A stretch of DNA of 64,000 nt, from NCBI RefSeq assembly GCF_024223415.1, contig NZ_CP100501.1; one strand, written 5' to 3'. The notes under the pieces are model-generated. The model did no database searches. It worked only from the letters and a program-made list of their open reading frames with translations, and was not told where the DNA came from. Positions 20,604 through 29,426 of the stretch are shown piece by piece. The stretch comes from Escherichia coli (lineage in GTDB: Bacteria; Pseudomonadota; Gammaproteobacteria; Enterobacterales; Enterobacteriaceae). A program made the translations under genes and the position numbers. Numbering within the stretch: position 1 is the first letter of the stretch; the number at the start of each line of letters is the position of its first letter.

Positions 20604-20738
20604 TTGACATCCTCCACGCCCTAAGGACGTGGGTTCCTGCTTCAACGGGCGGCATCCGTCATCCGCCAATACATTGAATAGCAGCAGACACCTGGTTAGG
20701 TGGAAAACAGCGCTTTATATCCCCGTTGAAGGACGGGG
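20604..20738. repeat. 135-bp structured direct repeat, copy 1 (copy 2 at 29292-29426)
   Basis: About 97% identical copies 8.7 kb apart, each containing several hairpins (CCACG..CGTGG, GGCGG..CCGCC, CCCCG..CGGGG). Confidence 0.85.
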
Positions 20739-21008
20739 GTAAGGGGTATTTGTTAAAAATCAGCACTATCCCTGCCAAATAGGATGATTAATATCACAAT
20801 ATATCGACAATTTTTTTAATATTAAACAAATAAACATTTGAAAAAAGTTGTTTATGAATGTCATAGATTGATATAAATCACATTTTTCATAACAACATTT
20901 AGACACCTCAAAAATATTCGCTCCTGTAAAACAACTTTTTTTTCTGTTGTGGGTCACCTTTATATTGAATACTCGTCACCAGTAAACAATATATACTGGA
21001 GATTTGTC

Positions 21009-21677
21009 ATGACGATATCCATTTTTCAGGCTCAACCCTTTGAATTACCCTTTGATCCGTGCACAACGGCACTGATCATGATAGACATGCAACGTGATTT
21101 TGTCGAAGCAGGAGGGTTTGGAGAAGCATTGGGTAATGATGTTTCACTGGTTCGCACGGCTATCGCACCATGTAAAGAAGTTCTGGCAGCCGCACGTCAA
21201 AAAGGAATTATGGTTATTCATACCCGTGAAGGCCATCGTGAAGACTTAAGCGACTGCCCATCAGCCAAACTGACGCGCGGCGGAAAAACCTTTATTGGTG
21301 AACCAGGACCGATGGGACGCATTCTGGTCAGGGGTGAGGCAGGTCATGACATCATTCCTGAACTGTATCCGGTGACAGGCGAACCTGTGATTGATAAACC
21401 CGGTAAAGGCGCTTTTTATCAAACCGACTTACATCTGATTTTGCAAAAGCGTGGTATCAAGACACTTATTGTTTGTGGCGTGACTACCGAAGTTTGCGTA
21501 ACCACCACCGTGCGTGAAGCAAATGACCGTGGCTATGAATGCATCATACCGGAAGATTGCGTTGGCTCCTATTTCCCGGAATTCCAGAAATACGCCCTTG
21601 AGATGATCAAAGCACAAGGTGCCATTTTCGGTTGGGTTACTGATTCCAAAGCCATTATTGCAGGTCTGGAAGGCTAA
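21009..21677 (+). CDS. Isochorismatase-family cysteine hydrolase
   Basis: ALIMIDMQRDF motif with catalytic Asp, VCGVTTEVCV with catalytic Cys. Confidence 0.75.
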   Translation: MTISIFQAQPFELPFDPCTTALIMIDMQRDFVEAGGFGEALGNDVSLVRTAIAPCKEVLAAARQKGIMVIHTREGHREDLSDCPSAKLTRGGKTFIGEPGPMGRILVRGEAGHDIIPELYPVTGEPVIDKPGKGAFYQTDLHLILQKRGIKTLIVCGVTTEVCVTTTVREANDRGYECIIPEDCVGSYFPEFQKYALEMIKAQGAIFGWVTDSKAIIAGLEG

Positions 21678-21682
21678 CGCCG

Positions 21683-22543
21683 ATGGTACAGGTTACGCTT
21701 TGTGCATCGTCGTTGGGATATCTTTTCCCGCAGAATGAAACGCAAGATTTACGTCTACATAGCGCTTTTAAACATGCGGTAAATCTGTATTCAGACGCGG
21801 GAACATTCATCACTCTGTTGTGTGCGCAAACGTATCTGAATCTCCCTGATGCTGCCAGAGTCTGGCTACCTGAATGTTGGGACTGGCGAAGAGAGATTGC
21901 CCATTCAGATCCCATTCAATTAACCCCAGGCTTACTGCGGACACCTCGATTTTGTGTGGCGCTCGATAACGCAACGCTCTGGCAGTCGCCATTTGTGGGG
22001 GGAATGCTGACTCTTGAGGCATTGCCTTTGGTTTTCCAGCACTACCCCACGATAGCATCGCAACGGCTTTTATTTTGTCTGGAGCATAACGTTCAAAGCA
22101 CATTGCACCTGCCGGATAGTCTCACGCACCAGGGATTAGATATTATGGAACATCCAGATGCGCTGGAACGCCAGGTACCCCAACTGATCGGCTTTGGTAA
22201 AGGCTTAACGCCCGATGGAGATGACTATTTGCTGGGCTATCTGGCAGCCCTCTGGTTATGGCAACTCCCTGCACCACTTGCCAATCATCAATACAGGTTG
22301 CAGAAGGCAATTGAACAACATGCACACAACACCACGGATATAAGTCGTCATTATCTGCAACGTGCGCTTCAGGGACATTTTTCAGAACCGATTTGCCGGT
22401 TACTCGCACAACTGGTTGGGAGCGCATCGGCAATGACAATCGCATCCTGTACAGAACAGATCATGCAATTTGGCGCAACATCAGGAGTAAATTGCCTTGC
22501 AGGAATGCTGCATGGATTTCGAACCCTGAACACCATGAATTGA
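21683..22543 (+). CDS. YahE-like protein of unknown function
   Basis: 286 aa, positioned immediately upstream of FdrA/YahF-like gene as in the E. coli yahEFG-yahI cluster. Confidence 0.5.
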   Translation: MVQVTLCASSLGYLFPQNETQDLRLHSAFKHAVNLYSDAGTFITLLCAQTYLNLPDAARVWLPECWDWRREIAHSDPIQLTPGLLRTPRFCVALDNATLWQSPFVGGMLTLEALPLVFQHYPTIASQRLLFCLEHNVQSTLHLPDSLTHQGLDIMEHPDALERQVPQLIGFGKGLTPDGDDYLLGYLAALWLWQLPAPLANHQYRLQKAIEQHAHNTTDISRHYLQRALQGHFSEPICRLLAQLVGSASAMTIASCTEQIMQFGATSGVNCLAGMLHGFRTLNTMN

Positions 22544-22637
22544 TTTCAACCTTTTCTCCCGTAGCCCGTTTATGGGGCTACACGGGGATGCTTTGCCCGA
22601 ATTTTGCTATCGGGCGGAATGGAACAGGCGTAACAGC

Positions 22638-26973: not shown

Positions 26974-26998
26974 CGCGCATTTATAAAGGGAACATACT

Positions 26999-28222
26999 AT
27001 GCGTAAAAAAGAAGAGAATCTGAATACGGCATCAGGATTGCGTATTGCCATGATTTTGCTGGGTATTGCCGTCACACCTGTGCTGTTGTCATCTTCAAGC
27101 CTCGGCAATCAACTTTCCAGCAGCAGTTTAATTAGCGTCGTATTGTTAGGCGGCGTCATTCTGACCTTACTTTCAGCCATCACCATTAGCGTGGGAGAAA
27201 AAGCCCGCCTGCCAACGTATGGCATTGTGAAATATTCGTTTGGCGAAAAAGGGGCCATCGCCATTAACATTTTGATGGCGATAAGTCTGTTCGGCTGGAT
27301 TGCCGTTACCGCCAATATGTTTGGTCATTCGGTACATGACTTACTGGCTCAACATGGACTGGAAGTTCCACTGGCACTGTTAGTGGCGGCTGGCTGTGTC
27401 ATTTTTGTCGCCTCTACGGCATTTGGCTTTACCGTTCTGGGAAAAATTGCCCAGGTTGCCGTGCCGGTTATCGCGCTGGTGCTGTGTTACATCCTCTATG
27501 TGGCAACCCATACCGAAGTGGCAGTACCAGCGGCGATTGTGGAGATGAATACAGGTGTCGCCGTTTCCACCGTTGTTGGCACCATTATTGTGCTGGTTGC
27601 CACACTGCCTGATTTCGGTAGTTTTGTGCATAACCGCAAACATGCGCTGATTGCCGCAGGCGTGACGTTTCTGGTTGCCTACCCTCTGCTCTACTGGGCG
27701 GGTGCAACGCCGAGTGCCATTAGCGGCCAGGGCTCTTTACTGAATGCTATGGCAGTATTCGGTGCGGTTATGCCTGCAGCACTGTTGCTGATATTCGCCT
27801 GCGTCACCGGTAATGCGGGCAATATGTTCCAGGGGACGTTGGTAGTTTCCACACTGCTTAGCCGCTTTCCCAAATGGCAGATTACCGTTGCGCTGGGTAT
27901 CCTTTCCGCCATCGTAGGCAGTATGGATATTATGGCGTGGTTTATTCCGTTTCTGCTGTTCCTGGGTATCGCGACTCCCCCAGTTGCCGGAATTTATATC
28001 GCTGACTTTTTCCTTTATCGCCGTAATGGCTATCAAGAGTCGGTGTTAACTCAGGAGTCACAGGTTAAAGTACTGACATTCGCTGCATGGATCACAGGCA
28101 CAGCGGTTGGCTTTATGACCGTAAAAGGCTTATTCACCCTGACGACGATCCCTTCAGTTGACTCCATTCTGGTGGCATGTATCGCGTATGCGATTCTCAG
28201 TCGGGCAAGTCAACACCGCTAA
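26999..28222 (+). CDS. NCS1-type nucleobase/cytosine permease-like transporter
   Basis: 407 aa, about 12 predicted hydrophobic helices. Confidence 0.6.
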   Translation: MRKKEENLNTASGLRIAMILLGIAVTPVLLSSSSLGNQLSSSSLISVVLLGGVILTLLSAITISVGEKARLPTYGIVKYSFGEKGAIAINILMAISLFGWIAVTANMFGHSVHDLLAQHGLEVPLALLVAAGCVIFVASTAFGFTVLGKIAQVAVPVIALVLCYILYVATHTEVAVPAAIVEMNTGVAVSTVVGTIIVLVATLPDFGSFVHNRKHALIAAGVTFLVAYPLLYWAGATPSAISGQGSLLNAMAVFGAVMPAALLLIFACVTGNAGNMFQGTLVVSTLLSRFPKWQITVALGILSAIVGSMDIMAWFIPFLLFLGIATPPVAGIYIADFFLYRRNGYQESVLTQESQVKVLTFAAWITGTAVGFMTVKGLFTLTTIPSVDSILVACIAYAILSRASQHR

Positions 28223-28299
28223 TTCCTGGGTATACTCAGGCAATGATTACGGCTGAATCTGGAGAGATTCAGCCACTTTACCACTGACCAGGGAGCCTT

Positions 28300-29189
28300 A
28301 TGTTCATCTCAGACGAAACGATTCGAATTATTCATCTGGTCGCCAGACACCAGAACATCACCACCGCAGCCGAACAGTTAAATAAAGTCCCTTCTACTAT
28401 CAGTTACACCCTGAAGAAAGCGGAAGAAACCCTGGGCGTTGAACTGTTCATTCGTAAGGGACGATATATTGAATTATCTCCGGCGGGGAGTTACTTCATC
28501 GAACATAGCAAAAATATTCTCCGCGATCTGGATGCATTAAAGCGCAACACAGTGCTGATTCACGATGGTATTGAGCGTGAACTGACAATTGCGGTGAACA
28601 ATATTATACCTGGTGATTTTCTGGTGTCATTTATTCAAGATTTTGAACGGCAATTCACATCAACAACACTGACGGTAGATATTGAAGTATACAACGGCTG
28701 CTGGGATGCGCTGTACAGTAAACGTGCTGATCTGGTCTACGGTGCTCCTCATGCAGTACCAAGCAGTGAAGGCATCATTAGCGAACCGGTCGGACAAATA
28801 GAATGGGATTTTGTCGTCAGCCCACTTCATCCACTGGCAGTGAAGCGGAATCCATTAGAAAACAGTGAATTGCGTCATTATCCTGCGGTTTGTATCCGGG
28901 ATACCTCCGTTAACTTCCCCCCAATGCAAGCCTGTTGTTGGAAGGACAAAAACCTATTTTTGTTCCTGACTTCGCCATGGCAATCAGCTTAATAGAACAA
29001 AACGTCGGTATTGGTTATATTCCACATCATCTGGCATTGCCGTTATTGAACAGAGGTAAATTGCTTAAAAAGCCAATGCGCGAACATAAACACGCCACCA
29101 AGTTATTTCTTGCCGCTCGTTCCGATGGTATAGGAAAAGCCTGTCTGTGGTGCATGTCGTATTTAAGAAATAAGCAATTCATGGCGTAA
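28300..29189 (+). pseudogene. LysR-type transcriptional regulator, frameshifted
   Basis: HTH N-terminus (IIHLVARHQNITTAAEQLNKVPSTISYTLKK); frame changes near a C6 run about 28917-28922; C-terminal part continues in ORF 28935-29189. Confidence 0.7.
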
Positions 29190-29291
29190 TACCATCAATA
29201 CAGTGATATTGCCAGGCTCTTCCAGCGTTATACTGAATGCAATGATCCGAAAGGATGATGAATGGATTGATTCATACCACAAGTTTTCATT

Positions 29292-29426
29292 TTGACATCC
29301 TCCACGCCCTAAGGACGAGGGTTCCTGCTTCAACGGGCGGCATCCGTCATCCGCCAATACATTGAATAGCAGCAGACACCTGGTTAGGTGGAAAACAGCG
29401 CCTTATATCCCCGCTGAAGGACGGGG
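29292..29426. repeat. 135-bp structured direct repeat, copy 2
   Basis: See copy 1 at 20604-20738. Confidence 0.85.

Follow-up and report, generated by a model that had tools for sequence, protein, structure and literature searches.

Why should a catabolic operon on an Escherichia coli plasmid stand between two short and nearly identical sequences that carry no gene of their own? The question is raised by a stretch of 64,000 nt of contig NZ_CP100501.1 (assembly GCF_024223415.1), here called the window. A sequence-only reading of this stretch had noticed a direct repeat of about 135 bp on both sides of an 8.5-kb module, and had proposed att-like sites, insertion by homologous recombination, or a reused terminator or small RNA as possible explanations. 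The region belongs to an IncF virulence plasmid of the ColV/ColBM type, as known from avian/extraintestinal E. coli. We consider it quite probable that both repeats are copies of a gene-less deletion derivative of the insertion sequence (IS) IS609, here called mini-IS609, that they now serve as passive homology, and that the module was captured through rearrangements mediated by mini-IS609.

The repeat pair and its relation to IS609

A repeat search of the window returned a direct-repeat family of 136 nt (20603-20738 and 29291-29426) with 98% identity and a spacing of 8,688 nt. The two copies differ by three mismatches, at repeat nt 28 (T in copy 1, A in copy 2), 112 (T/C) and 124 (T/C), and a 26-nt probe taken from the repeat matched these two sites alone in the 64 kb, with 0 matches expected from 100 shuffles. 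The first common T (20603/29291) belongs to the flank, and the element itself starts with TTGACA (20604/29292). Copy 2 has a true length of 150 nt (29292-29441), including 15 additional nt of the IS609 end beyond the common part, which are missing from copy 1. Folding of the minus strand as single-stranded DNA (ssDNA) gave four stem-loops for copy 1, with -26.7 kcal/mol and z = -3.5 relative to shuffles; the corresponding fold of copy 2 is weaker (z = -1.4), the difference at nt 28 being a mismatch in one of its stems. Near-identity over about 135 bp and richness in hairpins, both claimed before, are thus confirmed.

The two halves of the repeat are related to different parts of IS609, a member of the IS200/IS605 family. 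In BLAST searches repeat nt 51-135 showed an 86-91% match to a site that overlaps the 3′ end of IS200/IS605-family tnpA, and this gene was the annotated feature in all 52 of the matches listed that align to this part of the repeat, while repeat nt 1-38 match sequence directly downstream of insQ/tnpB genes. Partial matches lay beside insQ/tnpB or an IS200/IS605 tnpA in 7 of 7 chromosomal and plasmid loci that were opened. K-12 carries both halves at opposite ends of IS609, between ydcO and ydcL, and a second chromosomal IS609 at yeaQ/yoaG shows the same ends. The possibility had been raised that the repeat is common at unrelated loci. This applies to the halves, which turned up in 4,926 of 5,426 complete E. 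coli genomes, including K-12, in a sensitive BLAST search and form ends of IS609-family elements there; it does not apply to the whole 135-nt unit, for which no other place was found. A mobility association had likewise been suggested and is now evident, each half of the repeat being an IS609 end. The full repeat was detected in 146 records from 138 of the 5,426 genomes, nearly always twice per plasmid.

Judged by alignment, each copy is an internally deleted IS609 which, when the minus strand is read, begins with the left end (LE) and finishes with the right end (RE). Copy 2 aligned to the 1,748-bp IS609 of K-12 in three collinear blocks (IS609 nt 1-103, 1656-1680 and about 1720-1748), with identities of 91/100 (nt 4-103), 23/23 (1656-1678) and 35/39 (1710-1748). 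The first internal deletion removed 1,552 bp (nt 104-1655) carrying tnpA and tnpB. The second, located between the imperfect repeats GCAGGAACCCAC and GCAGGGATCCAC, took out about 40 nt around the stop codon of tnpB. Because both internal deletions are common to both copies, the two descend from one derivative and did not decay independently. A tblastn search of the window detected no IS609 tnpA or tnpB beyond the remnants in the repeats, namely the last 24-35 TnpA residues and 10 TnpB residues. In the ssDNA fold of the minus strand the LE hairpin has the stem CCCCGT/ACGGGG and the RE hairpin the stem CCACGTCC/GGGCGTGG; by their position and by analogy to IS608 they would represent the subterminal hairpins of LE and RE to which TnpA, a Y1 transposase, binds on ssDNA. 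The two copies are composed as follows.

20604-20738, minus strand: mini-IS609 copy 1, 135 nt, with IS609 nt 17-103, 1656-1680 and about 1710-1748; TTAT target, linker and guide absent
20604-20632, minus strand: right end of copy 1 (RE1), with the terminal TCAA at 20607-20604 and the RE hairpin at 20614-20632
20633-20653, minus strand: inner right-end segment of copy 1, corresponding to IS609 nt 1656-1680, of which the last 4-5 nt (CCAC) already belong to the RE hairpin span (20614-20632); bounded by two deletion junctions, with about 40 nt lost on one side and 1552 nt on the other
20654-20738, minus strand: left-end part of copy 1 (IS609 nt 17-103); small hairpin 20689-20702, LE hairpin 20721-20738
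Within 20654-20738, plus strand: last tnpA codons
29292-29441, minus strand: mini-IS609 copy 2, complete, 150 nt; RE hairpin at 29302-29320 with a T.T mismatch from the nt-28 difference
29409-29426 and 29427-29441, minus strand: left end of copy 2 (LE2), consisting of the LE hairpin and of the linker with the AAAA guide, respectively
29442-29445, minus strand: TTAT target motif (ATAA on the plus strand), directly 5′ of LE2

The largest predicted stem-loop (20636-20683, and 29324-29371 in copy 2) straddles the large deletion junction. In it the LE-proximal GCTGC..TTCAATG..GGCGG pairs with the RE-proximal CCGCC..CGTTGAA..GCAGG, complementary stretches that are 1.5 kb apart in full-length IS609. 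In copy 1 of another plasmid, AR_0085 (12152-12290), the LE hairpin reads GGACGGATG instead of GGACGGGGG, so that the truncated left end of copy 1 (LE1) is degraded further there.

Boundaries and target of the element can be read from occupied and empty sites. Six independent IS609-family insertions with unrelated flanks all begin with TTGACATCC (minus strand ...GGATGTCAA) and finish in ...C(C/T)GG, followed by ATAA. A synthetic empty yeaQ/yoaG site in which ATAA was kept gave a one-piece match over 300 of 300 nt in the genomes listed, and at least 80% of this query was covered in 4,317 genomes. Because the uninterrupted sites retain ATAA, this motif belongs to the target. As far as can be read from these sites, IS609 inserts 3′ of TTAT (top strand) without duplication and ends in TCAA. 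TTAT and TCAA have been reported as the commonest cleavage motifs in TnpB-carrying IS (PMC9956272). The four bases directly 5′ of the foot of the LE hairpin are AAAA, and IS608 pairs its target TTAC with a guide AAAG at the equivalent position (PMC5027513); the TTAT/AAAA combination would be the parallel to this pair.

Copy 2 has all of these features, with TTAT 5′ of its LE (29445-29442) and TCAA at its RE end. On the other side it abuts the remnant of a different element, and the sequences between the repeats can be described as follows.

20739-20765, plus strand: junction of copy 1 and chromosomal-type DNA, with GTAAGGG (7 nt) and then homology from about 20746
20746-29181, plus strand: bracketed module, 8.4 kb with 8 genes, a 95.6%-identical version of the chromosomal operon between ysgA and metE
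29230-29291, plus strand: 3′-terminal fragment (62 nt) of an IS110-family transposase gene, abutting the right end of copy 2 (RE2); BLAST identity 93.5%, tblastn match of 22 aa at 82% (E = 5.5e-7)

An intact IS110-family homologue is contiguous at the point where copy 2 is located, ...TTTTCATT (ending ...TTCATT) being directly followed by ATAA. Because this homologue reads through to ATAA at that point, copy 2 is a genuine TnpA-type insertion. The IS110-family fragment might reach left to about 29190 in more diverged form. Since the spacer between the LysR gene and copy 2 (29190-29291) consists of it, the right border of the module is itself an IS junction.

The situation at copy 1 is different. 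This copy ends at the foot of the LE hairpin, and the 15-nt linker and guide as well as TTAT are replaced by GTAAGGG; with its truncated LE, copy 1 does not show the fixed target. Meers et al. reported that excision needs both the target motif and the LE guide (PMC10055086). Because target and LE guide are both lost, together with the linker, copy 1 would not be excisable on its own. In a pairwise alignment to REL606, the homology that starts at about 20746 comprises the last ysgA codons and the spacer between ysgA and the operon. A BLAST match at 67% identity overlapping ysgA was obtained for 1,438 chromosomal records (1,439 places). Copy 1 had the same flanks in every record seen.

The bracketed operon and its loss

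The module encodes an isochorismatase-family hydrolase, AllH-, FdrA/AllF- and AllG-like proteins, a carbamate kinase, an AH_C protein, a cytosine/purine permease and a LysR regulator (Pfam domains Isochorismatase, AllH, AllF, AllG, AA_kinase, AH_C, Transp_cyt_pur and LysR). In about 1,500 E. coli chromosomes, that of REL606 among them, the 95.6%-identical operon lies between ysgA and metE and has no repeats beside it; the upstream spacer is only 67% identical between plasmid and chromosomal version. The repeats had been described as flanking the block exactly, which holds approximately, as the chromosomal-type DNA extends from about 20746 to about 29181 and leaves gaps of 7 nt at copy 1 and of about 110 nt, occupied by the IS110-family gene fragment, at copy 2. 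The plasmid-type allele is absent from the E. coli chromosomes examined, and the donor was probably a related but different lineage. An exact-protein look-up of the hydrolase for a donor context returned plasmid context or integrated copies alone.

The module also bears signs of sequence exchange. Compared to the modules of three other plasmids, the window differs by 85 substitutions and one 3-nt indel, all of them within 26807-27691, a tract that runs from the last part of the AH_C gene through two thirds of the following permease gene. The window has the chromosomal REL606-type allele at all of these positions, and the patch looks like the result of a gene conversion from the chromosomal ysgA-metE operon into the plasmid copy. 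The module region shows at most 99.1% identity to any record in the E. coli collection. A 1-nt deletion at 28933 relative to the three plasmids and REL606 splits the LysR gene into two open reading frames (ORFs; 28300-28992 and 28935-29189), reflecting either a pseudogene or a sequencing error.

Evidence for an activity of the repeats comes from plasmids that carry only one of them. Upstream of the two-copy unit lies a 3′ fragment of an IncI1-type nikB relaxase gene (nikB′), cut by an IS3-family element, and downstream cybC (cytochrome b562) is followed by IS debris. Four plasmids and one metagenome contig carry a single mini-IS609 in the arrangement nikB′-one copy-cybC, with the module absent to the nucleotide. 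The plasmids are pE15-3, two sister plasmids and pTB-nb2, and account for 4 of the 146 E. coli records. With T28, C112, C124 and a full LE, their single copy matches copy 1 in its left part and copy 2 in its right part, and because it is chimeric in this manner the crossover must lie between nt 28 and 112. The pattern of single-nucleotide polymorphisms (SNPs) alone fits gain or loss of the module, and it is the downstream junction of IS2 and IS1 that gives the polarity. The single-copy plasmids share with the AR_0085 plasmid, which has a matched backbone, the module and both copies, a derived junction with IS1, at which 15 nt of the left inverted repeat (IRL) of IS2 are left. In the window, other ColV plasmids, chromosomal islands and pGF4-A, the left end of IS2 is preserved at this place over its first 100 nt or more. 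The two-copy state is thus found inside and outside the clade with the IS2/IS1 junction, and the single copy is therefore most simply explained as a secondary deletion. The sole demonstrated activity of the copies is that of a passive direct homology of about 135 bp, through which recombination deletes the 8.4-kb module. With respect to the earlier proposal of insertion by homologous recombination, recombination at the repeat is supported by the single chimeric copies, but the data favour deletion and not insertion.

Plasmid setting and competing explanations

The full repeat was also found in 85 PLSDB plasmids, all of them conjugative and four from Klebsiella. No annotated feature lies under the repeat match in 120 of 120 matches listed, and one later match coincides with a hypothetical protein. 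Flanks were read for 24 fetched E. coli loci, for the window itself and for five contigs from 241 million metagenome records. The left flank of every copy is either nikB′ with 52 further nt or the IS110 fragment, the outer flanks of the two-copy unit are always nikB′ with these 52 nt and ATAA-cybC, and all five metagenome contigs show known contexts. Among the copies with flanks read, the mini-element was not found at dispersed unrelated sites, the hits amounting to 146 E. coli records and 85 plasmids in all. A spreading miniature inverted-repeat transposable element (MITE) was rejected, as E. coli genomes, plasmids, species representatives and metagenomes show two flank contexts only. A 20-mer across the deletion junction gave three hits in 100,044 species representatives (Sphingomonas, a Clostridia metagenome-assembled genome and Microbacterium), which are attributed to chance as no surrounding similarity was found. 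In the literature searched, no paper links IS609 to ColV plasmids.

Full-length chromosomal matches were considered as ancestral sites and rejected, since they are IS1-truncated or integrated pieces of the plasmid region (copy 2, cybC and IS2). Records with three copies were likewise rejected as tandem amplification of the module via the repeat, being IS1-associated partial duplications; p1337a (34246-40135), for example, has a partial second copy of the module beside IS1. Chromosomal integrations of the segment nikB′-copy 1-module were found as well. The region is repeatedly reshuffled by IS1 rather than via mini-IS609. On the left side of the window the nikB 3′ fragment spans 20143-20603; its IncI1 homology ends near the stop codon (about 20543-20550), with the 52 further nt before RE1, and other plasmids carry a 1,488-nt nikB fragment with vapBC upstream. 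ALIL pseudoknots of IS3-family elements were detected at 19142-19258 (116 bits), belonging to the IS that truncates nikB, and at 38132-38218 (64 bits), the second match being gapped with 87 nt aligned over the 117-position model. Downstream of cybC the left end of IS2 starts at about 30173, and an IS66-family element breaks it at about 30280; the ORFs of this element, within 30352-32685, have 133, 115 and 512 aa. In the other plasmid clade the equivalent IS2 end is cut by IS1 after 15 nt.

Two routes may be envisaged for the origin of the bracket. In both, the module, whose relatives lie between ysgA and metE, would come from the chromosome of an Escherichia-like donor and would have been captured through rearrangements mediated by mini-IS609; the ysgA tail that is kept beside copy 1 bears on this origin. 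In the route that we rank as most likely (a), a plasmid mini-IS609 between nikB′ and cybC would recombine with a chromosomal copy situated in an IS110 element beside the LysR gene. This would yield a cointegrate, from which an imprecise, F-prime-like excision would join the ysgA tail to the foot of the LE hairpin. Route (a) would reproduce the flank arrangement as well as the SNP pattern. Alternatively (b), the plasmid would have gained ysgA-module-IS110::mini-IS609, the mini-element would have transposed again nearby, and a deletion would have removed LE nt 15 through the ysgA tail. Both routes would fit the junctions.

Some points weigh against capture via mini-IS609 followed by passive loss. 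A donor with the plasmid-type allele beside an intact ysgA or a mini-IS609 was not found in E. coli, in the 100,044 species representatives or in metagenomes. The polarity of the loss rests on one IS junction, which could itself have been moved by recombination, and the exchange between the copies was presumably mediated by RecA, as suggested by the chimeric copy. Furthermore, the intact outer ends LE2 and RE1 leave room for a TnpA-mediated mobilisation of the whole unit, which is possible but unsupported.

Such a mobilisation would make the locus a composite peel-and-paste transposon, in which LE2 (29441, beside TTAT) and RE1 (20604, TCAA) bound a unit of 8,838 nt. Chromosomal IS609 TnpA acting in trans would excise it in the form of a single-stranded circle and integrate this circle 3′ of a further TTAT, with the operon as cargo. 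By their sequence the ends would suit this in several respects, as LE2 has target, linker, guide and hairpin and RE1 a perfect hairpin and TCAA, on one strand and in the right order. The inner ends are damaged, LE1 lacking the target and guide that are both needed for excision (PMC10055086) and RE2 having a stem mismatch, and IS609-family elements are present in most E. coli. The composite would imply an RE1-LE2 circle junction in which ...GGATGTCAA is joined to CCGTGCACC... and a donor joint of ...TTAT with ATACCCGCC...; the junctions to be expected are ...GGATGTCAA followed by CCGTGCACCG... for the circles (RE2-LE2 and RE1-LE2), and for the donor joints ...CTCCTTTTAT followed by AATGAAAAC... 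(copy 2 alone) or by ATACCCGCC... (composite). However, the unit was seen in a single flank context in the 146 E. coli records, 85 PLSDB plasmids and five metagenome contigs and in 0 of the 100,044 species representatives, and no empty donor-joint site was found in the E. coli genomes. No active TnpA partner is known either. The IS609 tnpA is a pseudogene in the chromosomal copies opened, and none of the 758 new insertions in mutation-accumulation lines of K-12 came from IS609 (PMC5009759). In addition, the 40-nt deletion changed the RE guide position from GGAT to GAAC, and 8.8 kb is long for a single-strand mechanism. For IS608, excision declines sharply as the element becomes longer, since its two ends have to be single-stranded at the same time. 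To our knowledge a composite-transposon mode has not been described for the IS200/IS605 family, and we regard this explanation as very unlikely. A slightly better, though still low, chance is given to the view that the single-copy plasmids are ancestral and that the module entered by homologous recombination of a circle with one mini-IS609. The symmetric SNPs would permit this, since a T/C/C ancestor and an A/T/T donor crossing between nt 28 and 112 would give copies 1 and 2, and the single-copy plasmids keep the longer nikB fragment. The nikB fragment of the two-copy AR_0085 is, however, equally long, and the derived IS2 (15 nt)/IS1 junction is common to AR_0085 and the single-copy plasmids while two-copy ColV plasmids retain IS2; because of this sharing one loss is more parsimonious than repeated gains. 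The rarity of the single-copy state, in just 4 of 146 records, also speaks against an ancestral role.

Of the two remaining explanations, att-like sites and, in the form of a reused terminator or small RNA, an RNA function had been put forward in the sequence-only reading, and neither was borne out. Att-like sites, at which a site-specific recombinase would excise and integrate the 8.5-kb block as a circle, would account for direct repeats at both borders and for the existence of single-copy sites. But neither the module nor its immediate surroundings contain a gene for an integrase or recombinase, the eight genes all being of the metabolic, transport or LysR type, and the repeat consists of two IS609 ends and not of a recombinase core. 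The single-copy crossover may be anywhere in the 84-nt interval between nt 28 and 112, as homologous exchange gives. A synthetic query for a repeat-free empty site returned no one-piece match in the 5,426 E. coli genomes, the joined matches containing one full mini-IS609. We therefore attach next to no weight to att-like sites. A function as RNA or regulatory element, be it an operon terminator or insulator, a small RNA, or a truncated TnpB guide (omega) RNA reading into the RE flank, could be suspected from the stable hairpins and from the LE2 hairpin being followed by TTTT on the plus strand, and there are sub-threshold HgcC matches on the minus strand (17 bits for the repeat, 22 bits for full IS609, gathering score 50). 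Scans of either copy found no terminator-like or promoter-like consensus site, however, and no Rfam family reached the gathering threshold in the repeats, the only hits in the window being the ALIL pseudoknots elsewhere. The hairpin of copy 1 has no T-run behind it, there is no tnpB in the window, and the approximately 54 nt that are left of the tnpB-proximal region, with their internal 40-nt deletion, are too little for an omega-RNA scaffold, which has about 100 nt or more. A present RNA function is accordingly highly improbable. When Rfam was searched at an E-value threshold with the repeat and full IS609, only sub-threshold matches to HgcC, sot0042 and RAGATH-18 were obtained, which we treat as leads. 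Those to HgcC (22 and 17 bits) and sot0042 are located at the tnpB 3′ end and RE (K-12 IS609, minus strand, 846-962; window 20594-20685). As families overlapping tnpB 3′ ends, they are consistent with an uncurated guide (omega) RNA of the IS609 TnpB.

Relation to known systems and significance

The closest relative is IS609 itself, which in K-12 carries insQ/tnpB and a tnpA pseudogene between ydcO and ydcL. The mini-element shares with it ends of about 90% identity, LE and RE hairpins, TTAT, TCAA and the strand logic. It differs in the absence of nt 104-1655 and of about 40 nt at the tnpB stop, being non-coding with 150 nt compared to 1,748 bp. Gene-less combinations of LE and RE with hairpins and an adjoining target motif are known as palindrome-associated transposable elements (PATEs) and minimal IS200/IS605 derivatives from Haloquadratum walsbyi and Geobacillus stearothermophilus (PMC3119063, PMC10055086). 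PATEs occur dispersed and in multiple copies, whereas mini-IS609 is found at two sites of one plasmid region, with one copy truncated.

As a pair around cargo, the copies resemble Tn10/Tn5 composites and IS26 pseudo-compound transposons. They are likewise direct IS-derived copies with degraded inner ends and with outer ends intact in sequence, and recombination between the copies removes the cargo. Here, however, the enzymology is of the Y1/HUH single-strand and not of the DDE type, there is no transposase and no target duplication, and no evidence for movement of the whole unit was seen among the loci, plasmids and contigs examined. Capture by F-type plasmids through F-prime formation or IS offers another likeness, namely a conjugative IncF plasmid with a chromosomal-type operon, whose borders, an intact copy derived from an IS on one side and an aberrant junction on the other, would be those expected after integration at IS homology and imprecise excision; the homology would in this case be provided by the 150-nt mini-element and not by IS2, IS3 or gamma-delta. 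Repetitive extragenic palindromic (REP) sequences, bacterial interspersed mosaic elements (BIMEs) and enterobacterial repetitive intergenic consensus (ERIC) sequences, also called intergenic repeat units (IRU), are short hairpin-forming intergenic sequences too, and REP sequences are linked to an IS200-like Y1 transposase (RAYT). No sequence relationship to them was seen, and a REP/ERIC-type repeat was rejected given the homology to IS609 ends and a copy number of two instead of hundreds.

The copies are a previously unannotated PATE-like IS609 derivative and would represent scars of the IS-mediated capture of a chromosomal operon. This is no new kind of system, and the explanation is an ordinary one. 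It accounts for an unannotated border feature of an accessory nitrogen/pyrimidine-type catabolic operon on ColV/ColBM-type virulence plasmids from avian and human extraintestinal E. coli, and it reveals a route by which this operon is lost, namely recombination between two 135-nt relics of IS609. The operon appears as a diverged copy of the chromosomal ysgA-metE island, with sequence exchange with the chromosome continuing. For the IS200/IS605 family, the locus adds a PATE-like derivative whose TTAT target and AAAA guide are readable from occupied and empty sites, and raises the question of cargo carriage by paired ends. If the composite explanation were true after all, IS609 TnpA acting in trans would move an 8.8-kb operon to TTAT sites as a single-stranded circle.

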